Origin: a virus
Lineage: Duplodnaviria; Caudoviricetes
Reading direction: 5' to 3' (one strand)
Virus record (IMG/VR): IMGVR_UViG_3300027759_000044
DNA: 64,000 bases
Shown: positions 1,944 through 61,613 of the stretch, in pieces
Layout of the letters: each line of letters starts with the position of its first letter
How positions within the stretch are numbered: position 1 is the first letter of the stretch
Translations under genes and position numbers: made by a program
The notes under the pieces: model-generated
What the model saw: the letters and a program-made list of their open reading frames with translations, nothing else
Told to the model about the DNA's origin: nothing
Database searches by the model: none

Positions 1944-3011
1944 ATGGCAAAACCATTTGATATTAGTAAGTTCCGTAAGGACATTACAAAAAGTATTGAA
2001 GGTCTATCAATAGGATTTAACGATCCTACTGATTGGATCTCGACAGGAAATTATGCTCTCAATTATCTCATTAGCGGCGACTTTAATAAAGGCGTTCCTC
2101 TTGGTAAAGTTACTGTCTTTGCCGGAGAGTCAGGCGCAGGAAAAAGTTTCATCTGTTCAGGAAACCTCGTCAGACACGCACAAGAACAAGGAATCTTTGT
2201 AGTCTTAGTTGACTCTGAGAATGCCCTTGACGAAGCATGGCTACACGCACTTGGTGTATCCACTGCAGAAAATAAACTATTAAAACTAAACATGGCAATG
2301 ATTGACGAAGTAGGAAAAACTATTTCTATGTTCGTTAAAGATTACAAAGCACTACCTGAAACAGATCGTCCTAAGGTATTGTTTGTAGTTGATTCATTAG
2401 GTATGTTATTAACACCCACGGACGTTAATCAGTTTGAAGCAGGTGATATGAAAGGTGACATGGGTCGTAAGCCTAAAGCACTAACAGCACTTGTTCGTAA
2501 TTGTGTTAATATGTTTGGTTCACTGGGCATTGGCTTAGTAGCAACTAATCACACCTATGCTTCACAAGATATGTTTGATCCAGATGATAAAATCTCAGGC
2601 GGTCAAGGTTTCGTTTACGCATCAAGTATTGTAGTTGCTATGAAGAAACTAAAACTTAAAGAAGATGAAGATGGTAATAAGATTAGTGATGTACGAGGTA
2701 TTCGTGCCGCATGTAAGATTATGAAAACTCGCTATGCGAAACCATTTGAATCTGTTCAAGTTAAGATTCCTTATGAAACAGGCATGAGTCCCTATTCAGG
2801 TCTACTAGATATGATTGAGAAGGCCGAACTTGTTAAGAAAGAAGGTAACAGTCTTGTCTACACAACACTTGATGGTGAAATTATTAAGAAGTTTCGTAAA
2901 GGATGGGAAGCTAATACTGACGGTTGCTTAGATATAGTAATGAGCGAGTATAGTCAAAAATCATCTACAAAGATAAGTACTGTAACACCTGAGGAGGAGG
3001 GTACAGAATGA
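1944..3011 (+). CDS. uvsX: RecA/UvsX recombinase
   Basis: Walker A GESGAGKS, VDSENALD, VVDSLG Walker B, GGQGFVYASSIVV, KTRYAKPF. Confidence 0.95.
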   Translation: MAKPFDISKFRKDITKSIEGLSIGFNDPTDWISTGNYALNYLISGDFNKGVPLGKVTVFAGESGAGKSFICSGNLVRHAQEQGIFVVLVDSENALDEAWLHALGVSTAENKLLKLNMAMIDEVGKTISMFVKDYKALPETDRPKVLFVVDSLGMLLTPTDVNQFEAGDMKGDMGRKPKALTALVRNCVNMFGSLGIGLVATNHTYASQDMFDPDDKISGGQGFVYASSIVVAMKKLKLKEDEDGNKISDVRGIRAACKIMKTRYAKPFESVQVKIPYETGMSPYSGLLDMIEKAELVKKEGNSLVYTTLDGEIIKKFRKGWEANTDGCLDIVMSEYSQKSSTKISTVTPEEEGTE

Positions 3012-6483: not shown

Positions 6484-7512
6484 ATGGTTGAATTTAATAA
6501 CAAAGAACAGTTAGTATATTTTATGGTTACCAACTTAAGATTAAGTAGGTATGATATTAGATTCCTTCAAAATCTTGAAAAAATTATTCTAGTTAAAAAT
6601 CGGATAACTAGTAATCAATCAAATTTAGTTGATAAACTTATTGAAAAATATGAACGTCAATTTGTAAAAAATCAAATGTTTATTAAGGATTTATCAAAGC
6701 TTCCTTGGAAAACACTTGTAGTAGAAACTACCGATGAATATACATCCGCTCATATAGGTATCGTAGATGATAACGTCATTCTTAAAACACCCTATAATAA
6801 AGCATTTATTACAGCATTCAGGAACCTTAGTCAATCTAGTTTTGTATGGGATAATACAAATAAATACTATATTGCTGATTTGAGTACCTTTTCTTTAAAA
6901 CTAGCATTACGTATGACTGCAATTTTCTTCAATGAAATTAGGTTTAGTGACAATGTTAACAAAATATTAAACCAGCAAGAGTATTATAAAGATGTAAAAT
7001 ATTGGACACCCACATTAGTTTGCGTTAATGGGAATTATATGATAGCATCTACTAACTCTGCATTAGATGAAGCTATTAAACATATTACTTTAACTACAGA
7101 ATTAACAACATTAGCTGAACTAGTAAGATACGGAATTGAAATTGATAACAGTATTTTATTAACTGATGAAGAACGATTTGCTGGTTCATATAATCCTAAA
7201 GTAGAATTAACCAACATATGTGATATTGTTCCTTGGTTAAAAAACATCAAATGTGATTATGTTACTGTATCAGGTGTGGGACTATCAACTAATGTAAAGT
7301 TTAAAAATGATTTAAAACAAGCATTAGAACTTGCAGGAATACGTTATAACGATTCTGCAAGAATGATGATACACGATAATACAAGTAAGTATAAATTCCC
7401 AGTAGTAATTAAATTCAAATTGATATCTGATACAGATCATGCTAATACAGCAAAAGTAATCACCGTGGTAAATAGTCAACCAGTTAACTTGGAAAAGAAT
7501 GAAACAATGTAA
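6484..7512 (+). CDS. Hypothetical protein with possible HARP-like segment
   Basis: 342-aa ORF overlapping uvsW; PYNKAFITAFR...WDNTNKYY resembles the HARP pattern (inference). Confidence 0.75.
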   Translation: MVEFNNKEQLVYFMVTNLRLSRYDIRFLQNLEKIILVKNRITSNQSNLVDKLIEKYERQFVKNQMFIKDLSKLPWKTLVVETTDEYTSAHIGIVDDNVILKTPYNKAFITAFRNLSQSSFVWDNTNKYYIADLSTFSLKLALRMTAIFFNEIRFSDNVNKILNQQEYYKDVKYWTPTLVCVNGNYMIASTNSALDEAIKHITLTTELTTLAELVRYGIEIDNSILLTDEERFAGSYNPKVELTNICDIVPWLKNIKCDYVTVSGVGLSTNVKFKNDLKQALELAGIRYNDSARMMIHDNTSKYKFPVVIKFKLISDTDHANTAKVITVVNSQPVNLEKNETM

Positions 7513-8956
7513 AATAATCGTCAAAGACGAAGTGAATGTAAAGATTGAGGGTCTTGAACTATCGGAGCGCAAAGCACTGATGAAAATGTTTGAGTACGAA
7601 ATACCCGGAGCACGTTATCTACCTGCAGTAAGATTAGGTAGATGGAATGGTAAGGTAAGCTATTTCAGTTTAGCCGGTAGTACTTATATCAATCTACTAC
7701 CTGAAATACTCCCTTACCTAGACAATGCAGGATATGACATTGAACTAGAGGATTTAAGAGATTACACAACAACCTTTACATTCGACAAAGTGTCCGAGGA
7801 TACGTTCAAAAATAAGAACTGGCCTAAAGGTCATCCCAAAGAAGGTGAACCGGTAGTTTTACGTGATTATCAAATTGAACTAGTAAACAACTTTTTAGAA
7901 AACCCGCAATCATTACAGGAGATTGCTACAGGGGCAGGTAAGACACTAATGACTGCGGCACTAAGTTATACTATAGAAAAGTATGGTCGTAGTATTGTCA
8001 TCGTTCCAAACAAGTCACTGGTAACACAAACAGAAGCAGATTACATTAATCTAGGATTAGATGTTGGTGTATATTTTGGTGATCGTAAAGAATATAACAA
8101 AACACATACTATCTGTACTTGGCAAAGTCTTAACAATATGCTTAAGAAAACAAAAGCAGGTGAAGCAGAAGTGGATATTGGAGACTTCATTGAAGGTGTT
8201 GTATGTGTGATGGTTGATGAAGTACATATGGCAAAAGCTGACGCACTAAAAACATTGCTAACTGGTGTATTTGCTAAAGTGCCCATTCGTTGGGGATTAA
8301 CAGGAACTATCCCTAAAGCAAAGTTTGAAGCACAAAGTATATATGTAAGTTTGGGTAACGTTATTGGTAAACTATCAGCAAGTGAATTACAGGATCAAGG
8401 TGTATTAGCACGTTGTTATGTTAACATTATTCAATTACAAGATGGTAAAGAGTTTACTAACTATCAAAGTGAATTAAAACATTTACTAGAAGATAGTGAA
8501 AGATTGGATAAGATAGCTAGTTTAATAAATGGTATTAATGATACAGGTAACACATTGATCCTTGTTGATAGGGTTAATGCAGGAAAAGAGATTGTTAGTA
8601 GATTGCCCGGAAGTGTATTTGTCAGTGGTGCTACTAATATGAATGAACGTAAGGAAGAATATGATGAAGTTGCGACAAGCACTAATAAAATTATTGTGGC
8701 TACTTATGGTGTGGCTGCTGTTGGTATCAATATACCCCGTATTTTTAATCTTGTTCTCATAGAACCCGGAAAAAGTTTTGTTCGGGTTATACAAAGTATT
8801 GGACGTGGGATTAGAAAAGCTGAAGATAAAGACCATGTACAAATCTACGACATAACCAGTAGTTGTAAATTTGCCAAAAGGCATTTGACCCAACGTAAAG
8901 CTTTTTATAAAGAGGCTAATTACCCGTTTGATGTAGAAAAGTTGACTTATAGATAA
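7499..8956 (+). CDS. uvsW: SF2 DNA helicase, UvsW-like
   Basis: LRDYQ Q-motif, ATGAGKT, DEVH, GLTGT, QSIGRGIR. Confidence 0.92.
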   Translation: MKQCKIIVKDEVNVKIEGLELSERKALMKMFEYEIPGARYLPAVRLGRWNGKVSYFSLAGSTYINLLPEILPYLDNAGYDIELEDLRDYTTTFTFDKVSEDTFKNKNWPKGHPKEGEPVVLRDYQIELVNNFLENPQSLQEIATGAGKTLMTAALSYTIEKYGRSIVIVPNKSLVTQTEADYINLGLDVGVYFGDRKEYNKTHTICTWQSLNNMLKKTKAGEAEVDIGDFIEGVVCVMVDEVHMAKADALKTLLTGVFAKVPIRWGLTGTIPKAKFEAQSIYVSLGNVIGKLSASELQDQGVLARCYVNIIQLQDGKEFTNYQSELKHLLEDSERLDKIASLINGINDTGNTLILVDRVNAGKEIVSRLPGSVFVSGATNMNERKEEYDEVATSTNKIIVATYGVAAVGINIPRIFNLVLIEPGKSFVRVIQSIGRGIRKAEDKDHVQIYDITSSCKFAKRHLTQRKAFYKEANYPFDVEKLTYR

Positions 8957-12997: not shown

Positions 12998-13540
12998 ATG
13001 GCACAAGATATAATGATTGATATGGAAACGCTTGACACAAGTCCTGATTGTGTTATACTAACTATTGGCGCAGTAAGATTTGATCCTAAATGTAGTGGAG
13101 TTGTTGAGCGATTAGAATTGCGACCTACAATTGAAGAACAAACAGAAATTTATAATAGGAGTATAAATGAAGATACATTACGATGGTGGAGTGAGCAAAG
13201 TCCTGAAGCTCTTGAAGAGGCTATGGGAGAAACTGGACGAATTCCGTTTAGAGAATGTATGGAGATACTTTATAAGTTTTGTTGGAATCGTCGTGCTGTG
13301 TGGAGTAATGGTGCATCATTTGACGTGGTTGTGGCAGAGTCGGCCTGGAGAAATCTTGAAATGCGAACCCCGTGGCCTTTTTATACAGTCAGAGATACTC
13401 GTACCTTGTATGAGATTGCCGGAGTCAAATTAAAAGATGGCGGGCATGTCACCAGTCATAAAGCAGTAGAAGATGCTGAACGACAAGCCATTGTTGTACA
13501 AAAAGCGTATACCAAATTAGGATTAAGTAATGAGAATTGA
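12998..13540 (+). CDS. dexA: DEDDh 3'-5' exonuclease, T4 DexA-like
   Basis: ExoI IDMET, LRWWSEQS, ExoII WSNGASFD, RDTRT, ExoIII HKAVEDA. Confidence 0.85.
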   Translation: MAQDIMIDMETLDTSPDCVILTIGAVRFDPKCSGVVERLELRPTIEEQTEIYNRSINEDTLRWWSEQSPEALEEAMGETGRIPFRECMEILYKFCWNRRAVWSNGASFDVVVAESAWRNLEMRTPWPFYTVRDTRTLYEIAGVKLKDGGHVTSHKAVEDAERQAIVVQKAYTKLGLSNEN

Positions 13541-14093
13541 TAGTGATATTGACATTGACTTCGGAGATAGAGATACTCTATTAAAATTAATACCTCACAC
13601 AAGAGCGGCAATGCGTAATGTTAAGCCTATACGTAATCATGCCACTGGAGTTTATATTACTGACGTACCATATGATCCAGTACACAATATAGCAAGTATT
13701 GACTATACTTCCGCAGATAAACGTGGATATTTCAAATTAGATTTATTGAACGTTCATGTTTATAATCAGGTTCGTGATGAAGCACATCTTATAGAATTGA
13801 TGAGAGAACCCAAATGGAGTAAACTTAAAGATCCTGTATTTGTAGAAAAATTGATTCATTTGAATAATCAGTACTATAATCTACAAAAGATGCGAGAACC
13901 AGTAGATAGTATTCCTAGATTAGCTATGTTTTTAGCTGTTATTCGCCCCGGTAAAAAGCATCTAATAGGTAAACAATGGAGTGATATTGCTAAAACTGTA
14001 TGGGATAAGGGAACTGATGGATATACTTTTAAGAAGTCACATGCCATAAGTTATTCATGGCTTGTTGCAGTTCATATGAATTTGTTAGGGTAA
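13530..14093 (+). CDS. dnaE: Miniature DnaE (Pol III alpha-like), catalytic-aspartate half
   Basis: In order: SDIDIDF, NHATGVYIT, FKLDLL, LAVIRPG, GYTFKKSHAISY, matching DnaE PDxDxDF, KHAGGVVI, KFDFL, ALFRPG, GYGFNKSHS. Confidence 0.85.
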   Translation: MRIDSDIDIDFGDRDTLLKLIPHTRAAMRNVKPIRNHATGVYITDVPYDPVHNIASIDYTSADKRGYFKLDLLNVHVYNQVRDEAHLIELMREPKWSKLKDPVFVEKLIHLNNQYYNLQKMREPVDSIPRLAMFLAVIRPGKKHLIGKQWSDIAKTVWDKGTDGYTFKKSHAISYSWLVAVHMNLLG

Positions 14094-14465
14094 ACGTTTT
14101 ACTAAAGTAATACTACGGCGTTTACTTCTACGTTTGTTTAATTCAATTATACTACATACAGGACCATGTAGTATTGTGAGACTTTTGTTATTAAACGTTC
14201 TAATATAGGGCCTAAAGATACTCCATTCGTCTTTTAAAAATAGATTTATGGGGATTAATCTATTAGATTCCCACCACCAAACATCTCCTAGTTCTAGGAA
14301 TTTCTCTTTAATTACATTATCTATTATAGCACCGTAGTCGTATATAGTGGTAACTATATCGTCTCGGTTCTGGACAATTCCCACATAATCCTGATTTGCG
14401 TAGGAGCAAATAGTTATGAAGGGATGATTTTCGCCTAAGCGTTTAAAAAACTCGTTTTGTATCAT
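14085..14465 (-). CDS. Hypothetical late protein
   Basis: Start re-called to ATG 14465, below a minus-strand GATAAATA at 14486-14493; basic C-terminus. Confidence 0.75.
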   Translation of the reverse strand: MIQNEFFKRLGENHPFITICSYANQDYVGIVQNRDDIVTTIYDYGAIIDNVIKEKFLELGDVWWWESNRLIPINLFLKDEWSIFRPYIRTFNNKSLTILHGPVCSIIELNKRRSKRRSITLVKRLP

Positions 14466-14560
14466 TAAAATTATAGTCTCGGATATATTTATCACCCTTC
14501 CCAAACCATTAATAAAATAATATATATGGGAGACTAAATACACAATAGGAGATTACATTT

Positions 14561-15328: not shown

Positions 15329-15370
15329 ACAACCATAGTTGTTGATATCTTTGTTAGAGTATGTTATACT
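15329..15370 (+). promoter_or_regulatory. Class II (AACC-box) sigma70-type promoter for primase
   Basis: AACCATAG-N3-TTGATA 15342-15347, 17 nt, TATACT 15365-15370. Confidence 0.65.
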
Positions 15371-15377
15371 ACTACTA

Positions 15378-16355
15378 ATGTTTGATATTTTATCCATAAT
15401 TCCCGGCAAGAAAAAGACTACAAGTAGCGGATGGCATAGCTTTAATGCTATCTGTTGTGGTCATCTTGGTCATAAACCTGATCGCAGAATGCGTGGTGGT
15501 ATTAAGTTTGACGGACAAACTAACTGGTCTATGCATTGCTTTAACTGTGGATACAAATGTAACTTTGTATTAGGTCGTAGCATAAGTTATAAAACAAAAC
15601 AACTATTGTTATGGTGCGGCATTGATGACACCCAAATAGGTAAGTGGAGCATAGAAAGCCTACAGCAAAAAGATTTACTTGAAATTGTTATACAAAAGAA
15701 AACTAAAATAAAAATCAAATTCAAGGATCATGAATTACCTGAAGGTGAAATGTTAGATGGAAATAATCCATTACACAAAGTGTACATTGATTATGTGCAG
15801 TCGAGGGGGATAAATTATAATGAGTATCCGTTCTTAATAACACCAACTGCAAAAGGTCGTTACGCAAATAGAATAATCATTCCCTACACTTATAAGAATA
15901 AAATTGTTGGTCACACTAGCAGATTCTTAGACAATAAAATACCAAAATACATTAACGAACAACAGCCTGGCTATGTGTTCAATATTGATATACAGAAACC
16001 CGAATGGCAAGTATGTATATTGACTGAAGGCATATTTGATGCATTAAGTATTGATGGTATAGCAATTATGCACGATGACATTAGCAATGAACAAGCACAA
16101 TTAATTGCGTCATTAAATAAACAAATTATTGTAGTACCTGATAGAGATAAAACAGGTTTAAAGATATGTGATAGAGCATTAGAATTAGGCTATAGCGTTA
16201 GTTTACCTAATTGGGAACCGGATATTAAGGACGTCAACGATGCTGTTGTAAGATATGGCAAGTTGCCAACTCTATTAAGCATCTTGCAAAGTGCTACAAT
16301 GAGTAAAATAAAAATAGAAATACAGAGGAAGAAAATTGAGAAAACAATCGGATAA
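15378..16355 (+). CDS. gp61: DNA primase (Zn ribbon + TOPRIM), gp61-like
   Basis: CCGH...HCFNC, LTEGIFDA, PDRD, KDVND; start re-called to MFDIL below the promoter. Confidence 0.9.
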   Translation: MFDILSIIPGKKKTTSSGWHSFNAICCGHLGHKPDRRMRGGIKFDGQTNWSMHCFNCGYKCNFVLGRSISYKTKQLLLWCGIDDTQIGKWSIESLQQKDLLEIVIQKKTKIKIKFKDHELPEGEMLDGNNPLHKVYIDYVQSRGINYNEYPFLITPTAKGRYANRIIIPYTYKNKIVGHTSRFLDNKIPKYINEQQPGYVFNIDIQKPEWQVCILTEGIFDALSIDGIAIMHDDISNEQAQLIASLNKQIIVVPDRDKTGLKICDRALELGYSVSLPNWEPDIKDVNDAVVRYGKLPTLLSILQSATMSKIKIEIQRKKIEKTIG

Positions 16356-17775
16356 TAAAGAATATAGTGTAGAATTGCAGAAGTTGTTTCTGCAAATGAT
16401 GATTACAAATGCCGAGTTATACACCAGAGTTATGAACATTATGAACTCGGAGAACTTTGATAAATCATTAAGATCGGCAGCAGAGTTATTTAAAGAACAT
16501 ACAACAAAATATGGGGTACTACCCGACAGTACACAAATTAAAGCATTAACTGGTATGGATCTTGAAATAATACCTGAATTGAGTCAGGGACATTATGATT
16601 GGTTCTTTGAAGAATTTGAATCATTTACTAAACGACAAGAATTAGAAAGAGCAATATTAAAAAGTGCTGACTTACTTGAGAAGGGTGATTTTGGTCCTGT
16701 TGAAAAATTAATTAAAGATGCGGTACAAATCAGTTTACAAAAAGACATGGGTACAGATTATTTTGCTGATCCGGCAGGGCGTATTAACAAATACTTTAAC
16801 AGTGGTGGGCAAGTCAGTACAGGCTGGCCACAGATGGATAAGATTCTTTATGGTGGCATGAGTCGTGGAGAATTGAATATCTTTGCGGGTGGTTCAGGAT
16901 CAGGTAAATCACTTGTAATGATGAACATAGCATTAAATTGGTTACAGACAGGTATGAGTGGGGTATATGTCACATTAGAATTGAGTGAAGAACTAACTAG
17001 TTTGCGTACTGATGCGATGTTAACTAATATGGGCACAAGAGATATTCGTAAAGATATTGGATCAACTGAACTTAAAGTTAAGATGGTTGGTAAGAAAGCA
17101 GGACAATATCGTGTTAAAGCATTACCAGCACAAAGCAATGTAAATGACATTCGTGCTTATTTAAAAGAGGTTCAGATTCAAACAGGTATTAACATTGATT
17201 TTGTGATGATTGATTATTTGGATCTAGTAATGCCTGTCTCTGTTAAAGTTAACCCTAACGATCAGTTTATCAAAGACAAATATGTTGCTGAAGAATTGCG
17301 TAATCTTGCAAAAGAAATGAGTATTTTAATGGTAACAGCGTCACAGTTAAATCGTAGTGCGGTGGATGAGATTGAGTTTGATCATAGTCATATTGCTGGT
17401 GGTATCAGTAAGATTAATACAGCAGATAATGTGTTTGGTATCTTTACAAGTCGTAGTATGCGGGAGCGTGGGAAGTATCAGATCCAATGTATGAAGTCCC
17501 GTAGTTCAACTGGTGTTGGCATGAAAATTGACCTAGAGTACAATATTGAAACTATGCGTATTAGTGACAACGGAGGTGATGGTGATGATAGTTATAGACC
17601 ACAACCTAGTGCTACTCAGATTATGAGTTATTTGAAGCCACAATCTACCTTACAATCTACAGAACCTATCATAGATCAGGCTACAGGAGAGATATTAGAG
17701 GCGGAAAACAAGAAAATTGTAGTAGATGTTCAGGGATCAAAATTGAAGAATTTGCTGAATAGTTTAAAGAAATAA
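16336..17775 (+). CDS. gp41: Replicative DnaB-like helicase, gp41
   Basis: GGSGSGKS, TLELSE, IDYLD, TASQLNR, KSRSS; overlaps primase. Confidence 0.93.
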   Translation: MRKQSDNKEYSVELQKLFLQMMITNAELYTRVMNIMNSENFDKSLRSAAELFKEHTTKYGVLPDSTQIKALTGMDLEIIPELSQGHYDWFFEEFESFTKRQELERAILKSADLLEKGDFGPVEKLIKDAVQISLQKDMGTDYFADPAGRINKYFNSGGQVSTGWPQMDKILYGGMSRGELNIFAGGSGSGKSLVMMNIALNWLQTGMSGVYVTLELSEELTSLRTDAMLTNMGTRDIRKDIGSTELKVKMVGKKAGQYRVKALPAQSNVNDIRAYLKEVQIQTGINIDFVMIDYLDLVMPVSVKVNPNDQFIKDKYVAEELRNLAKEMSILMVTASQLNRSAVDEIEFDHSHIAGGISKINTADNVFGIFTSRSMRERGKYQIQCMKSRSSTGVGMKIDLEYNIETMRISDNGGDGDDSYRPQPSATQIMSYLKPQSTLQSTEPIIDQATGEILEAENKKIVVDVQGSKLKNLLNSLKK

Positions 17776-23054: not shown

Positions 23055-24977
23055 ATGGCCATTATACAGATATCAAAAATCCAACAGCGTTCAGGTAACC
23101 TTGTAGACCTGCCACAATTATCAGAAGCACAATTAGGTTGGGCTAATGATGCTAAACGCCTTTTTATAGGTGGAACAGGCAATGCTAATACCTATAATGA
23201 AAACATTGAAGTATTAACATCTTATTCTGATATTACCTTTAGTCAGATTAACGGTAGTGAGGGTAATTTAAATATTTCCAATGCTCAGACTGGTCAAATT
23301 CTAACCTATGTAGCTAGTACAAATACTTGGGATAATGCAGGTGGTAACGCATTACAACCCGGCAATTCCGCATTATATACCGGCGGTAATATTCATTTGG
23401 GTGATGTATCTACTCTTAAAATTGGTGGCGGAGCAATAGGATATGTGTTAGAAACAGATGGTGTGGGTAATCTAACATGGACACCCAAATCAACAATTAC
23501 AGCATACATTAGCGCAGTAACAAAAGCTAATCCTGGTGTAGTAACCACTACCGAAGATAATTTCTTTACTGAAGGTGCTGAAATAACTATCACTAATGTT
23601 GGTGGTATGGTAGAGCTTAATGGTGGAAGTTTTTATGTAAATATATTAACTTCTAACACGTTTTCTTTGTACTCGGATTCTGGTTTAACGACTCCGGTAG
23701 ACACAACTGGATATACTACATATACAACCGGTGGTAGGGTAATATCTAGCGTAGGTGGCGCAGGAACTAGTGCAGCCGGCGGTAGCAATACTACTATTCA
23801 ATTTAATGATAATAATGTCATTCAAGGCAACGCTGGATTTACGTTCAATAAAATTACAGGCGCAGTAGCTATTCCAGGTAACCTTACTGCAGGTAATGTA
23901 AGTGGTACACTAGTTACGGGTACATTAACAACTGTAGCACAACCAAACATCACAAGTGTTGGTACATTAACATCACTTGTAGTTACTGGTAACATTACAG
24001 GTGCAAATTTAATAGGTAATCATTATGGTTCAGGTATTGGATTAACTTCTATTCCGGGTGCAAATGTAACAGGTCAAGTAGCTAATGCACTAGTAGCAGG
24101 GACAATCTATACTGCGGCACAACCAAATATCACATCAGTGGGTACATTAACAAGTTTAGCTGTAACGGGTAATATAAGTGGAGCAAATATTACTGGTACA
24201 CATTATGGTTCAGGTATTGGATTAACTTCTATTCCGGGTGCAAATGTAACAGGTCAAGTAGCTAATGCACTAGTAGCAGGGACAGTATATACAAATGCAC
24301 AACCAAATATCACTAGTGTTGGTACACTAACAACTGTAACTGTAAGCGGTAATGCCAATGTAGGTAATATATTAACTGATAACTATAAGTATGCTAACGG
24401 TACTTCTATTAGTTTTGCCGGAACATATGGCAATAGTAATGTAAGTTTATTCTTAGCCTCATATGGTAGCAATACAATTAGTACGACCGGTAACATAACT
24501 GCAGGTAATATTATTACTACTGTTTTAACAGCAGGAGCTAACACGACAGCAGGTAATATTACAGGTAACTGGTCATTAACTACCGGATCTAAATTAACAG
24601 CAACATATGCTGACTTAGCAGAATATTATGAATCAGATAGACATTACGAACCCGGTACAGTACTGGCATTTGGTGGAGACAAAGAAGTTACAATCGCAGA
24701 AGATTCGACTACGAAAGTTGCAGGTATTGTATCAACTAATCCAGCATATGTAATGAATAGTTCTTGTCCAGGTCAACATACAGTTGCATTAGCATTACAA
24801 GGTCGTGTTCCGTGTAAAGTACGTGGTAATATTAAAAAGGGTGATATGTTAGTAAGTGCAGGATATGGCTTTGCCAAATCTACACCCTTCCCAATATTGG
24901 GTACAGTGATTGGTAAATCATTAGAAAACTTTGATGGTGTAGAAGGCATCATTGAAGTAGCAGTCGGCAGACTTTAA
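23055..24977 (+). CDS. Tail fibre or spike-like protein
   Basis: Mtd-N-like start (IQQRSGNLVDLPQL..AQLGW), FCCH-like module, three QPNITSVGTLT repeats, C-terminal ADLAEYY...GTV...GRVPCKV domain. Confidence 0.75.
   Translation: MAIIQISKIQQRSGNLVDLPQLSEAQLGWANDAKRLFIGGTGNANTYNENIEVLTSYSDITFSQINGSEGNLNISNAQTGQILTYVASTNTWDNAGGNALQPGNSALYTGGNIHLGDVSTLKIGGGAIGYVLETDGVGNLTWTPKSTITAYISAVTKANPGVVTTTEDNFFTEGAEITITNVGGMVELNGGSFYVNILTSNTFSLYSDSGLTTPVDTTGYTTYTTGGRVISSVGGAGTSAAGGSNTTIQFNDNNVIQGNAGFTFNKITGAVAIPGNLTAGNVSGTLVTGTLTTVAQPNITSVGTLTSLVVTGNITGANLIGNHYGSGIGLTSIPGANVTGQVANALVAGTIYTAAQPNITSVGTLTSLAVTGNISGANITGTHYGSGIGLTSIPGANVTGQVANALVAGTVYTNAQPNITSVGTLTTVTVSGNANVGNILTDNYKYANGTSISFAGTYGNSNVSLFLASYGSNTISTTGNITAGNIITTVLTAGANTTAGNITGNWSLTTGSKLTATYADLAEYYESDRHYEPGTVLAFGGDKEVTIAEDSTTKVAGIVSTNPAYVMNSSCPGQHTVALALQGRVPCKVRGNIKKGDMLVSAGYGFAKSTPFPILGTVIGKSLENFDGVEGIIEVAVGRL
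24021..24284 (+). repeat. Identical 84-nt direct repeat inside the fibre gene (24021-24104 = 24201-24284)
   Basis: CATTATGGTTCAGG...GCAGGGACA is identical; period 180 nt (60 aa). Confidence 0.9.
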
Positions 24978-52992: not shown

Positions 52993-53499
52993 ATGAAAAC
53001 AGATAAGTATGGTCAATTAATTTACAATCAGCACGATTTGTGCGAATTGTTTCTACAAGATCCTACACGTACTATCACTAACGCACTTATAGATAACCCA
53101 ATTGAATTTAATGGATTTCTCTCATTAGAGAATTTACCCAATCTAAAACAATATGACAATTTAAATCTTTCCATAGAAGAATTTGATAAACAAAATCAAT
53201 CAAAATGGCATATGCCCAAAGAATATTATGAGTTTGATATTGCTAAATGGGTATTAGATCAATGCAAAAATGAAGCTGAGTTACAACGTGCCGGAGATGA
53301 ATTAATTAAGTTTCAAGAACGTAATATGTTTGTATTATTACAGTATTTAAAATACTTAGTAGATACTATGCGTAAAAATAATGTTGTATGGGGTGTAGGG
53401 CGTGGAAGTTCAGTGGCAAGTTTTGTATTGTTTTTAATAGGAATACATAGAATAAATAGTTTGTACTATGACTTATCAATAGATGAGTTTTTAAAATAA
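52993..53499 (+). CDS. dnaE: Miniature DnaE (Pol III alpha-like), GRGS half
   Basis: RAGDELIKF...LQYLKYLVD...WGVGRGSSVASFVLFLIGIHRINSLYYDLSIDEFLK* aligns with DnaE RLETEL...[35 protein letters not shown]. Confidence 0.85.
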   Translation: MKTDKYGQLIYNQHDLCELFLQDPTRTITNALIDNPIEFNGFLSLENLPNLKQYDNLNLSIEEFDKQNQSKWHMPKEYYEFDIAKWVLDQCKNEAELQRAGDELIKFQERNMFVLLQYLKYLVDTMRKNNVVWGVGRGSSVASFVLFLIGIHRINSLYYDLSIDEFLK

Positions 53500-53509
53500 G
53501 GAGAATATT

Positions 53510-53860
53510 ATGGCTAATTATAAAACAGCAATGGGTAAAGTTGTTGATATGTCGGCACTAGCTGCAAAGAATGAAAAAACTAGAGCAGTAGGGAACATGA
53601 AGGTTAATGCACGGGGTGATACCATTGATGCTCAAGGTCGTATTATAAAATCTGCGACAGTTAAAGCAAATGATTCATATAACAGAACTGTGGGTAATCG
53701 TTCTGCTCAACCAGTAAGACCTACCACAAAGCCATCGGCCCCAGCTAAACCAAAAATTGATTTTAGTGAATTAACTGAAATAGAACGTGAGATTGAAGAA
53801 TCTTACATAGATGATTTAGAAGTGGAACACATTAAAGCACAGGAACTTAAAAAGAAATGA
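53510..53860 (+). CDS. Hypothetical protein
   Basis: RBS AAGGAG; 116 aa. Confidence 0.8.
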   Translation: MANYKTAMGKVVDMSALAAKNEKTRAVGNMKVNARGDTIDAQGRIIKSATVKANDSYNRTVGNRSAQPVRPTTKPSAPAKPKIDFSELTEIEREIEESYIDDLEVEHIKAQELKKK

Positions 53861-54234
53861 ACCAATACAGTAAACCGGCATTTAGTCACACCAAAGCAGA
53901 TAAACTGACATTCTTTAGAGATCATGTCATTGTATCTGAGATGCATTTTGATGAACGTATTAGTACCGGAGGTATAATTCTACTAGATGATGATAAGAAA
54001 AGTTCAGGTATTCGTCCTCGTTGGGCAAAGATTTATGGTTTGGGTCCAGAACAGGATGATCCTCAACTAGAGATCGGTAAATGGGTTCTAGTTAGTCACG
54101 GTCGTTGGACAAGGGGTATTACTGTTGAGACACCTTCGGGTAAACAAACATTGCGTAAAGTTGATCCCGGTGATATACTATTAGTATCGGATGAGCCGAT
54201 GGAAGATGAAACAATGAGTGATAAGGTATTTTAA
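53857..54234 (+). CDS. groES: GroES-like co-chaperonin
   Basis: DHVIV...STGGIIL mobile loop...GLGP...IGKWVL; analogous to T4 gp31. Confidence 0.8.
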   Translation: MNQYSKPAFSHTKADKLTFFRDHVIVSEMHFDERISTGGIILLDDDKKSSGIRPRWAKIYGLGPEQDDPQLEIGKWVLVSHGRWTRGITVETPSGKQTLRKVDPGDILLVSDEPMEDETMSDKVF

Positions 54235-54533
54235 TGATAAATTGGTTTAGACAAAAATTACAAAACTTTTTGTATCCACAATATCCACAAGATAGTGAGT
54301 TAGTGGAATCAAAACCACATACCAGAAGAGGTGTTCTCGTTAGAGGGTCAAGCTTTGATAGTAGAGGAATGAGTTTTACTATTCATCAAGCTAGTGGAGG
54401 TTATGTTTTAGAATACTCATCTTATGACGAAAAGACAGATAGACCTAATCACAATCTACATATTATTCCTTCTGATCAGGATATGGGTCAGGGTATCGCA
54501 CACATCATCACATTAGAAATGTTAAGAAAATGA
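54234..54533 (+). CDS. Hypothetical protein
   Basis: TAATG and ATGA coupling. Confidence 0.75.
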   Translation: MINWFRQKLQNFLYPQYPQDSELVESKPHTRRGVLVRGSSFDSRGMSFTIHQASGGYVLEYSSYDEKTDRPNHNLHIIPSDQDMGQGIAHIITLEMLRK

Positions 54534-55459
54534 AAAATAGCCTTTGGGTAGAAAAGTATCGTCCGCAAACAGTAGCAGATTATGTGTTTGTAAACGAAAG
54601 ACAAAAAAATCAAGTAGAGGGTTGGATTAAAGAGGGTAGTATTCCTCATCTTTTACTATCAGGTGATCCGGGTACAGGTAAGACAACTCTTGCTAAAGTA
54701 TTGATACATGAACTTGGTGTTAGTGAATATGATGTATTGGAGATCAATGCTTCACGTGAGAATAGCGTAGATGTTGTACGTAACAAAATTGTTAACTTTG
54801 TACAAACAATGCCTTTCGGTAACTTCAAAGTTGTATTACTAGATGAAGCAGATTATTTGACACCAGCTGGCCAAGCGGCATTGCGTAACGATATGGAAGC
54901 ATATCATATGACAGCACGATTTATTCTAACCTGTAACTATCAGCATAGAATTATCCCAGCATTGAAATCACGATGCCATGAGTTTCACATTACAAAAACA
55001 GATAAAACAGAGTTCACTGCGAGAGCGGCAACTGTGTTAGTAAGTGAAAACGTTGAGTTTGAATTAGATGATTTGGATAGTTATGTTCGTGCCACATATC
55101 CAGACTTGCGTAAATGTTTGAATCAACTACAAGTTAACAGTAGTACAGGAAAACTATTGTCATCACAAACTCAAAGTAGTGGCGAAGATGAGTTATTGGT
55201 AGAGGCAACTACTTTGTTTAAAGCAGGGAAGATCCTTGAAGGTAGACAACAGTTATTACAATATATTGCATTGTATCCTACACGCATTGAAGATACGTAT
55301 GCATGGATGTATCAGAATTTAGATTTATGGGGTAAGTCTAATGAAAAACGTGATGCTAGTATTATTGTTATTAGAAATGGTTTAGCTAATCTAAGTATGG
55401 TAGGAATTCCTGAAATATCACTGGCAGCAACATTAGTAGAATTGACAGGTGATTTATGA
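54530..55459 (+). CDS. gp44: Clamp loader large subunit (RFC/gp44)
   Basis: LWVEKYRPQT, GDPGTGKTT, EINASRE, LLDEAD, SRC motif. Confidence 0.95.
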   Translation: MKNSLWVEKYRPQTVADYVFVNERQKNQVEGWIKEGSIPHLLLSGDPGTGKTTLAKVLIHELGVSEYDVLEINASRENSVDVVRNKIVNFVQTMPFGNFKVVLLDEADYLTPAGQAALRNDMEAYHMTARFILTCNYQHRIIPALKSRCHEFHITKTDKTEFTARAATVLVSENVEFELDDLDSYVRATYPDLRKCLNQLQVNSSTGKLLSSQTQSSGEDELLVEATTLFKAGKILEGRQQLLQYIALYPTRIEDTYAWMYQNLDLWGKSNEKRDASIIVIRNGLANLSMVGIPEISLAATLVELTGDL

Positions 55460-59336: not shown

Positions 59337-61613
59337 GTGAATAATTCACCCGAAATCGAAGCCATCATTGAACAGGCTATTGAGTTGTCTAAACAACGTA
59401 AACATCAATATTGTACAATTGAACATTTGTTATTATCATTAATAACACATACACCATTTAAAAAATGTTTAGATAGTTTTGGATGTGAAACCTCAACTAT
59501 GATTCAAGAGGTTACTTCATACGTTGATAGCTTACATGCTATTGTAGCAAAGATAGACCCTAACCAAGAAGTTCAACCACGTAAAACTAACAGTTTAGAA
59601 CGTGTAATGAATCGTTCTGTTACTCAGGTACTGTTCACTGGACGTAGACAAGTAACTACTATTGACTTATATCTCTCTATCGCTAGTGAGGGTAATAGTC
59701 ATGCTCACTATTTCTTATTGAAATATGGGATTAATAAGAATGATTTTGTCGCACATTGGCAAAAAACATATAAAGGTTCAGAATTCACTAGTAAACTTTC
59801 TGAAGGTCAAGCAGATGAGATTCTTGAAGAATATACTACTAACTTAACTAATCTTGCACGACAAGGTAAACTTGAACCATTGATTGGTCGTAGTACTGAA
59901 CTAGACGATATTGTTAATGTATTGGCTAAACGATTCAAATCAAATGTATTGATGGTGGGTGATCCGGGTGTGGGTAAAACAGCTATTGCTGAAGGGCTTG
60001 CACAAATGATTGCTGATAAAACAGTACCTGAATTCTTACACGGACATGAACTATATTCACTTGAGATTGGTGCCTTACTTGCTGGATCTAAATATCGTGG
60101 TGACTTTGAAGAAAAAGTTAAAGCTGTCCTTGATGCACTAAACACTAAGAAAAAATCAGTATTGTTTATTGACGAAGCACATACTATGAAAGGTAGTGGT
60201 TCATCTACTAGCGGAAGTATTGATTTTGCTAATATGATTAAACCTGCAATTACTAAAGGTACACTTAAAGTTATTGCTAGCACCACGTGGGAAGAATACT
60301 ACGATTCATTTGAGAAGGATCGTGCTTTAATGCGTAGATTCTATCGTGTATCAATTGATGAACCTTCACATGATAGTACAATTCGTATTCTTAAAGGATT
60401 AAGTTCAAGGTTGAATGACTTCCATGAAGTTGAAATTAGTGATGAAGCAGTAACTGCGGCAGTTGACGCATCAGTACGTTACATTCACGACCGTAAGAAT
60501 CCAGACAAAAGTATTGACTTATTAGATGCGGCATGCGCTAAACAACGTGTTGCGGGTAATAAAGGTGCAATCATTACTAAAGACTTGATCCATGAACAAG
60601 TTGAACGATTCACCGGTGTTCCTGCTGATAAACTTAATGGTGATAACTACGACCGTATCAATAGCCTTGAAGTTAATATCAAAGGTAAACTATACGGACA
60701 AGATGAAACAGTTGAACAAGTGTTAGAACGTATCTATGTTAGCTTTGCTGGCATTGGTAATGAACATAAACCTACAGCAAGTTTCATCTTCTTAGGCCCA
60801 ACTGGTACAGGTAAAACAGAATTAGCTAAGTTGTTAAGTAAAAACCTTGATATGACATTACTCAAATATGATATGAGTGAATATAGTGAAAAACACTCAG
60901 TATCAAGTTTGATTGGTCCTCCCCCTGGCTATGTTGGATTTGGTGATAGTCAAGTAGGTGGTGGTCGTCTAATCAATGACTTAAGCAAGAATCCACATAG
61001 TATCTTACTATTTGACGAAGTTGAAAAGGCTCACCCTGATATCTTTAATATCTTCTTACAGATGTTAGATGAAGGTCGTATTACTGGTAGTAACGGCAAA
61101 GAAGTTAACTGTAAGAATACTATTATTATTATGACAAGTAACTTGGGTAGTAGTGATAGTGAGAAAAACAATATTGGATTTGGTAGTCAAGAAAAGACAG
61201 GTGAGGATGACAAAGCAATTAAAGAGTTCTTCAAACCAGAATTTAGAAATCGTGTTGATTTGATTTGTAAATTTGGTAAACTTGATTTCTTAGCAATTAA
61301 GAAAATTGTTGTTAAGTTTACGGAAGAATTGAAGAAATCATTATTTGATAAGCACAATATTAGTTTGAATCTAAGTGAGCCAGTAGTTGATTATTTGGGT
61401 GAGAAGGGCTATGATAAGAAAATGGGTGCTCGTCCATTAAGCCGTAAGATTGACGAATTGATTCGTGTACCATTGAGCAAGAAAGTACTATTTGAGCGTA
61501 TTAAAAATGCTACAGTAACATGTGTACTAGTGGATGATAAGATTGAGTTCAATGTAGTACAGAAATCAATAGCGAAAGTAGGAGAAGATGGGATTATTGA
61601 AATTAGCAACTGA
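59337..61613 (+). CDS. clpA: ClpA-like AAA+ unfoldase
   Basis: Clp-N domain, GDPGVGKT, FIDEAH, GPTGTGKT, FDEVEKAH, IGF loop (NIGFG), GARPL. Confidence 0.93.
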   Translation: MNNSPEIEAIIEQAIELSKQRKHQYCTIEHLLLSLITHTPFKKCLDSFGCETSTMIQEVTSYVDSLHAIVAKIDPNQEVQPRKTNSLERVMNRSVTQVLFTGRRQVTTIDLYLSIASEGNSHAHYFLLKYGINKNDFVAHWQKTYKGSEFTSKLSEGQADEILEEYTTNLTNLARQGKLEPLIGRSTELDDIVNVLAKRFKSNVLMVGDPGVGKTAIAEGLAQMIADKTVPEFLHGHELYSLEIGALLAGSKYRGDFEEKVKAVLDALNTKKKSVLFIDEAHTMKGSGSSTSGSIDFANMIKPAITKGTLKVIASTTWEEYYDSFEKDRALMRRFYRVSIDEPSHDSTIRILKGLSSRLNDFHEVEISDEAVTAAVDASVRYIHDRKNPDKSIDLLDAACAKQRVAGNKGAIITKDLIHEQVERFTGVPADKLNGDNYDRINSLEVNIKGKLYGQDETVEQVLERIYVSFAGIGNEHKPTASFIFLGPTGTGKTELAKLLSKNLDMTLLKYDMSEYSEKHSVSSLIGPPPGYVGFGDSQVGGGRLINDLSKNPHSILLFDEVEKAHPDIFNIFLQMLDEGRITGSNGKEVNCKNTIIIMTSNLGSSDSEKNNIGFGSQEKTGEDDKAIKEFFKPEFRNRVDLICKFGKLDFLAIKKIVVKFTEELKKSLFDKHNISLNLSEPVVDYLGEKGYDKKMGARPLSRKIDELIRVPLSKKVLFERIKNATVTCVLVDDKIEFNVVQKSIAKVGEDGIIEISN

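Follow-up and report, generated by a model that had tools for sequence, protein, structure and literature searches.

A split minimal DNA polymerase III alpha, probably an accessory polymerase, in an uncultured T4-related jumbo phage

The 64-kb stretch of DNA analysed here (64,000 nucleotides; hereafter the window) belongs to IMG/VR virus record IMGVR_UViG_3300027759_000044 and derives from a T4-related jumbo phage (G+C content, ~35%); the source is an uncultured giant phage from freshwater. We conclude, with a probability of about 85%, that the open reading frame (ORF) at 13530..14093 (+ strand; 187 amino acids, aa) encodes the catalytic half of an enzyme known from group 2.2 jumbo phages, the split minimal DNA polymerase III (Pol III) alpha, and that it serves as an accessory polymerase together with an N-terminal half (N-half) encoded elsewhere in the window. 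Group 2.2 consists of T4-related phages like Rak2, PA5oct, and Atu_ph07. The split enzyme was already described, on the basis of sequence, in 2021 (Iyer et al., 2021), and the window copy adds another lineage. Our additions to that description are modest and comprise natural single-chain fusions of the two halves, an invariant break point, selection figures, confident structural models, and a clade-specific coupling to an exonuclease gene.

The catalytic half and its relation to Pol III alpha

The C-terminal half (C-half) is the catalytic, Mg2+- and template-binding part of the split enzyme, and it contains the motifs D6-I-D8-I-D10-F, H37-A-T-G40-V-Y-I, K69-L-D71-L-L, R139-P-G, and F167-K-K-S-H171-A-I-S-Y. 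The D6-x-D8-x-D10 motif (13545..13559, +), whose D6 and D8 are equivalent to D401 and D403 of E. coli, was assigned from conservation (n = 80) and alignment to MPDFDVDF. The K69-L-D71 motif (13734..13742, +), which supplies the third catalytic Asp and corresponds to E. coli K553/D555, is aligned to KFDFLGL. Of the two finger motifs, R139-P140-G141 (13944..13952, +; E. coli FRPG 638-641) was placed by conservation and profile alignment, and K168-K169-S170-H171 (14031..14042, +; E. coli N757-K758-S759-H760) by its alignment to GFNKSHSAAYAL. The conservation figures come from an alignment of 80 diverse C-halves (30-54% identity), which were selected from the 364 matches obtained by searching 1.84 billion representative proteins exhaustively. 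Among these 80 sequences, D6, D8, K69, D71, and P140 are invariant, and D10, H37, G40, R139, K142, K168, and H171 are at least 90% conserved. Judging from the sequences, these motif matches are not due to chance. The C-half also matched phrog_11778 (3.5e-56) over residues 5-186 of 187. The family is large, and clustering at 90% identity yields at least 7,600 clusters for either half; the nearest IMG/VR contigs to the window copy are from freshwater and reach 94% identity, and identity to any isolate phage is below 60%.

Alignment of the C-half family profile to E. coli Pol III alpha (DnaE) gave an E-value (E) of 1.5e-5 and consisted of three co-linear pieces, in which profile positions 4-20 correspond to DnaE residues 399-417 (MPDFDVDF), positions 54-140 to residues 538-641 (KFDFLGL...FRPG), and positions 151-180 to residues 739-769 (GFNKSHSAAYAL). 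This co-linearity implies that D6, D8, and D71 are the equivalents of E. coli D401, D403, and D555. The initial annotation of this DNA, made from the sequence alone, had recognized the palm and finger landmarks of DnaE in order, and all of the motifs that it named are indeed present in this co-linear alignment. It had further proposed that the thumb is deleted, with only ~25 aa between DIDIDF and HATG. This proposal was borne out: ~87 DnaE residues between 417 and 538, where the thumb lies, have no counterpart in the C-half profile, 25 residues separate F11 from H37, and 34 profile positions stand against 121 DnaE residues (417-538). In the structural model of the C-half, a short loop that joins strands 24-28 and 35-42 is all that occupies the thumb position. 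The YQEQ finger segment, which had likewise been read as missing, is represented by another ~87 unmatched DnaE residues between 641 and 739. Moreover, the C-half ends 16 residues past KSH, close to the ~15 aa originally given. The start of the ORF had been placed 4 residues before the first catalytic Asp; its position near the break between the two halves is correct, but the count is not, because five residues (MRIDS) precede D6.

Structural comparison supported this relationship. The AlphaFold2 model of the C-half (predicted local distance difference test score, pLDDT, 96.2; predicted template modelling score, pTM, 0.88) was used in a VIA structural search, in which seven family C polymerases ranked at the top. 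These included PolC 3f2b (Z 9.3, root-mean-square deviation [rmsd] 3.3, 181 residues aligned), M. tuberculosis DnaE1 5lew (Z 8.8), Taq 2hpi (Z 8.8), and E. coli alpha 5m1s (Z 7.3). The family C matches use 181-184 of the 187 C-half residues, and the first unrelated fold reached only Z 4.1. Since the 5m1s match spans residues 398-776, the 187 residues of the C-half do the duty of ~379 residues in E. coli. Foldseek against the PDB also returned Pol III alpha as the top matches, but only at E 4e-3, and the VIA search is the clearer of the two. Searches with the single C-half sequence gave nothing meaningful in Pfam or in PDB sequences (erabutoxin matched by chance at E ~3), and it took profiles to detect the homology by sequence.

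The thumb and the clamp-binding, HhH, and OB domains are absent from the split enzyme, and no PHP domain was detected. Pfam did not match PHP (PF02811) in either window half, and five relatives (171-303 kb), for which the controls were positive, gave no match at E<=1 to PF02811 or PF17657 (PHP and Pol III finger, respectively). In the genomes of relatives, PF07733 matches the N-half only.

The N-half, the break point, and natural fusions

The second ORF (52993..53499, +; 168 aa) encodes the N-terminal, nucleoside triphosphate (NTP)-binding part with the GS motif, and it lies 39 kb downstream of the C-half on the same strand. It matched PF07733 (2.3e-8) and phrog_11127 (2.9e-39). The N-half profile aligned to DnaE residues 319-392 (E 5.5e-5) and ends at FERFL, and its G134-V-G-R-G-S-S140 sequence (53392..53412, +), the GS motif of the Pol-beta-like fold, is invariant in 43 sequences. 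Thus, profile alignment to DnaE, which had been proposed as a check on both halves, succeeded for each of them. The break site is constant across the family, because all 34 non-redundant IMG/VR N-halves end at ...EFL[K/R]. The C-half had been said to start exactly where this ORF ends. The adjacency stands, with the N-half reaching DnaE 392; the exactness does not, because the C-half profile begins at 399, which places the break in a loop of ~6 residues. The alignment of the N-half to DnaE extends to its penultimate residue, and that of the C-half starts at residue 4 in sequence and at residue 1 in structure. Both halves therefore align to DnaE up to the break and have no spare length for a split intein, in agreement with the earlier reading that no intein is present.

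Three metagenomic clusters from independent samples (P0284, P0391, and P0392) contain unsplit proteins of 375-376 aa in which the N- and C-parts are joined. The fused genes of P0284 and P0392 are located at L100:1066-2193 and L186:519-1649, respectively. The fusions show 34% identity in the N part (2e-14) and 40% in the C part (1e-39), with a link of nine residues. The P0284 model (pLDDT 88.1, pTM 0.86) has its lowest confidence at this linker and matched M. tuberculosis DnaE1 5lew with Z 21.1 (rmsd 4.2, 327 residues aligned), followed by Taq alpha (Z 18.8), PolC (Z 17.9), and E. coli alpha (Z 15.4); the next fold had a Z of 4.6. In a rebalanced joint alignment of a fusion with the N- and C-halves, only 1 of 49 rows was misplaced; an earlier MAFFT version was misaligned and was discarded. 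The fused genes lie in a gene context of the C-half type, and the closest relatives of the fused forms are stand-alone C-halves whose upstream gene is not the N-half. An origin of the fusions from adjacent split genes was considered and is unsupported, because the gene upstream of the nearest stand-alone relative is not the N-half. From these sequence relationships, a secondary fusion appears to be the more economical reading of the single-chain forms. The fusions are not mentioned in the available part of the 2021 paper (PMC7824862).

Co-occurrence, selection, and complex prediction also tie the two genes together. Among isolate jumbo-phage records, 96 contain the C-half and 95 the N-half, and the counts per host genus are equal, partial records aside. 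Of five large IMG/VR relatives, four have both halves, and the contig of the fifth stops short of the expected site. Both halves are under strong purifying selection (pairwise dN/dS 0.065-0.13 in 14 comparisons), and D6, D8, and D71 are invariant. The complex model of the two window proteins scored 0.92, compared to 0.01 for the best of three controls; the mark used for this score is reached by 58 of 80 solved complexes and by 2 of 110 mismatched pairs. The runs had at least 97% of contacts in common, with partner pLDDT of at least 91. In the model, the GRGS loop packs against the DxD strand and the KSH helix and touches C-half residues 9-11 and 168-181. The natural fusion is a stronger argument than the complex model that the halves form one enzyme. 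Taken with the profiles and the structure matches, these results uphold the proposal of the initial annotation that the two ORFs make a two-chain, ~355-aa minimal Pol-beta-like nucleotidyltransferase, whose halves co-occur, are predicted to assemble, and keep their catalytic Asp residues under purifying selection.

The 543-kb contig G006/L113 (IMGVR_UViG_3300024239_000011; 543,035 bp, rated 100% complete) contains the N-half with its usual downstream synteny, and its family B polymerase (PolB) is encoded by two ORFs of 549 and 572 aa that are ~7 kb apart. Alishewanella phage vB_AspM_Slickus01 (OQ508957.1; 141,644 bp) carries a C-half homologue (37% identity, 1e-19). Since this genome is well under the 200-kb jumbo threshold, the family may reach beyond jumbo genomes.

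Gene neighbourhood of the two halves

Directly upstream of the C-half is a gene for a DEDDh 3'-5' exonuclease of the Rv2179c-like type (12998..13540, +; PF16473, 9.3e-32). Its last 11 nucleotides (nt) overlap the start of the C-half, whose ATG is preceded by AGGA. Of 80 close freshwater IMG/VR loci, 71 have the exonuclease gene at this position; PA5oct and Atu_ph07 have unrelated genes there. We therefore rejected the exonuclease as a family-wide conserved partner. Its translational coupling to the C-half is specific to the clade of the window, and within this clade only, the exonuclease is a possible epsilon-like editing partner. A near-consensus sigma-70-like site (13032..13059, +; TTGACA, 16 nt, TG, TATACT; 11/12) is located within the 5' portion of the exonuclease gene. 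Promoter-like sites (17, compared to 14.8 expected) and terminator-like sites (11, compared to 12.6 expected) are at background level in this region, and for this reason we make no claim of separate promoters.

Convergent with the C-half is a small gene of unknown function (14085..14543, -; phrog_11637, 1.9e-30). It overlaps the 3' end of the C-half, and this arrangement, with 9-17 nt shared, is seen in the window as well as in PA5oct, Atu_ph07, Yen9-04, and both fused loci. The encoded protein has a basic C-terminal tail, KRRSKRRS, and gave no match in Pfam and no usable match in Atlas. As a conserved neighbour, this gene might have a functional link to the C-half. Farther downstream are genes for a primase (15339..16355, +; Toprim, phrog_47) and a helicase of the gp41/DnaB type (16336..17775, +; DnaB_C, 2.4e-19), with which the C-half is syntenic in all of the lineages examined (PA5oct, Atu_ph07, Yen9-04, and the window).

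Downstream of the N-half come genes for a small 'NARGD' protein (53510..53860, +; phrog_14844) and then for a 125-aa protein (53857..54234, +), and this gene order recurs in the distant 543-kb contig. The 125-aa protein, which had been called GroES-like, gave no Pfam match. About 1 kb downstream of the N-half is a clamp-loader ATPase of the gp44/RFC type (54530..55459, +; AAA 2.1e-16, Rad17, DNA_pol3_delta2). The T4-related genes of the window, among them gp41, gp61-like, and gp44-like genes, also include those for a UvsX-like recombinase (1944..3011), a UvsW helicase (7499..8956), and tail sheath and gp15-like genes. Other products include a full double AAA+ chaperone of the ClpB/ClpA type (59337..61613, +; AAA_2 1.6e-54, ClpB_D2-small, Clp_N) and a 640-aa protein (23055..24977, +) with a ubiquitin-activating enzyme E1 FCCH domain (PF16190, 1.5e-9, above the gathering score).

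Probable role, alternatives, and comparison with known systems

The C-half brings the three catalytic aspartates (D6, D8, and D71) and the RPG and KKSH finger motifs, and the N-half contributes the GRGS motif for nucleotide binding along with the palm helices. In the mechanism that we propose, the two proteins would assemble non-covalently into one active site of the Pol-beta fold, giving a template-directed DNA polymerase of low intrinsic processivity that would assist the family B replicase of the phage in replication and recombination. Conservation of RPG and KKSH favours templated synthesis; an enzyme that lacks the thumb and YQEQ segment is likely to be of low processivity. PolB of ~903 aa is present in all five of the large relatives and occurs as two ORFs in a sixth. 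Because the relatives carry PolB, in agreement with the literature on this phage group, the mini enzyme is most likely an accessory polymerase rather than the replicase; this fits the initial view that such an enzyme is unlikely to be the processive replicase. The neighbouring primase-helicase, UvsW, and clamp-loader genes hint at lagging-strand primer extension, gap filling, or recombination-dependent synthesis, each of which is a plausible role.

Several points weigh against this interpretation. In Pol III alpha, the thumb and the YQEQ segment touch the DNA and the nascent base pair, as seen in the Taq and E. coli structures. Templated synthesis is therefore not assured in an enzyme from which both are missing. 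A literature search that did not span all journals found no report of biochemical activity for any member of the family. PolB was not found inside the 64-kb window, and its presence in this phage is inferred from relatives. The pass of the complex model may reflect likeness only, because the complex resembles solved single-chain Pol III alpha. Finally, two profiles and a motif pattern detected no C-half in the 543-kb contig G006, and no primase was detected there. Since the primase is undetected too, this contig is not evidence of a lone N-half; its C-half/primase block may be missing or divergent.

An unlikely alternative to an accessory DNA polymerase is that the heterodimer is a nucleotidyltransferase that, after the loss of the thumb and most DNA-contacting parts, works without a template. 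As is the case for other minimal enzymes of the Pol-beta fold, its products would then be tailed ends or a nucleotide signal. Such a function would be in keeping with the absence of the thumb, the YQEQ segment, and the HhH, OB, and clamp-binding domains, and with the structural neighbours that follow the polymerases for the fused model, namely ANT(2''), CCA-adding enzymes, MenT, and cGAS-like proteins (Z 2.5-4.0). These matches to small nucleotidyltransferases are nonetheless at background compared to the Z of 15-21 for Pol III alpha and PolC, and the finger motifs RPG and KKSH are conserved. Moreover, both genes are located in replication modules and not in defence or counter-defence islands, and the available part of Iyer et al. 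(2021; PMC7824862) assigns the C-half to Mg2+ and template binding. It is very improbable that the split enzyme is instead the main replicative polymerase of the phage. Although the window holds no family A or B polymerase and the two genes adjoin the primase-helicase and clamp-loader genes, a family B polymerase is found in every large relative searched, as the literature states for the group, and the enzyme has no thumb, no clamp-binding motif region, and no built-in proofreading domain.

The two remaining alternatives have next to no probability. That the ORFs are decaying pieces of a dnaE pseudogene, or products of mis-assembly or frameshift, might be suggested by their length, which is far below that of DnaE, and by the failure of Pfam to recognize the C-half. 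This reading is refuted by the selection and conservation data: dN/dS is 0.065-0.13, the catalytic residues are invariant down to 30% identity, the same split point recurs in 34 N-halves, and there are at least 7,600 clusters for each half and confident folds. In addition, the genes are 39 kb apart here and are likewise separate in ~95 finished isolate genomes. Equally negligible is a covalent joining of the halves by a split intein, for which trans-spliced split DnaE genes of cyanobacteria provide the precedent; there is no room for an IntN of ~100 aa or an IntC of 35 aa, and the natural fusion needs merely nine linker residues.

Beyond the accessory role, we offer a tentative proposal, by analogy, that the two-chain enzyme and its 375-aa form might be self-sufficient as a minimal polymerase of family C, with a dedicated job of which the PolB replicase is incapable, such as the extension of primers made by the primase before hand-off, in the manner of B. 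subtilis DnaE and Pol alpha, and that in the clade of the window it is perhaps proofread by the coupled DEDDh exonuclease as a miniature alpha-epsilon pair. If this were true, it would be the smallest known working polymerase of the Pol III type and an experimental model for the origin of the bacterial replicase core. The family C core has been cut to about one-third of the usual catalytic region and split in two, and strong selection maintains the resulting mini polymerase across a very large, abundant group of giant phages in which a family B replicase is already present. The natural single-chain fusions provide ready-made constructs for biochemistry and independent evidence for one enzyme.

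Compared to bacterial Pol III alpha (E. coli 2hnh/5m1s, Taq 2hpi/3e0d, and M. tuberculosis 5lew) and PolC (3f2b), the split enzyme has the same Pol-beta-like palm, GS motif, DxD and third Asp, RPG, and KSH in the same order, and the structural likeness amounts to Z 15-21 for the fused form and Z 7-9 for the C-half alone. In contrast to these single chains of 1,100-1,450 aa, it consists of two chains that total ~355 aa, lacks PHP by Pfam, and has deletions of ~87 aa each at the thumb and the YQEQ segment. Its chain ends at the equivalent of DnaE ~776 and so is without the clamp-binding, HhH, OB, and tau-binding parts of Pol III alpha. The DnaE of cyanobacteria is also encoded by two genes, whose full-size halves are joined by protein trans-splicing. 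Both are thus family C polymerases made from two distant genes, but the phage enzyme has no intein, and its break lies elsewhere, just before the DxD motif. B. subtilis DnaE and eukaryotic Pol alpha are examples of a second, non-processive polymerase beside the main replicase; the phage enzyme, with genes near that of a primase, may be likened to them by functional analogy only.

Both halves are listed as "DNA polymerase" in PHROGs and are annotated likewise in several GenBank records. The CBB paper had earlier noted a truncated alpha-like N-half, and the PA5oct omics paper makes no mention of either half gene. The closest known system is the "minimal, split DNA polymerase III alpha" that Iyer, Anantharaman, Krishnan, Burroughs, and Aravind (2021; Viruses 13:63; PMC7824862) described from jumbo phages of group 2.2, together with a polymerase of family B. 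As far as the available part of that paper goes, their system and that of the window alike consist of two stand-alone proteins from distant genes, with an NTP-binding N part, an Mg2+- and template-binding C part, and no other Pol III domains, in T4-related jumbo phages with PolB (for the window, PolB is taken from relatives). On the same basis, the window system differs in nothing of kind from theirs, and it represents an uncultured freshwater lineage of this enzyme.

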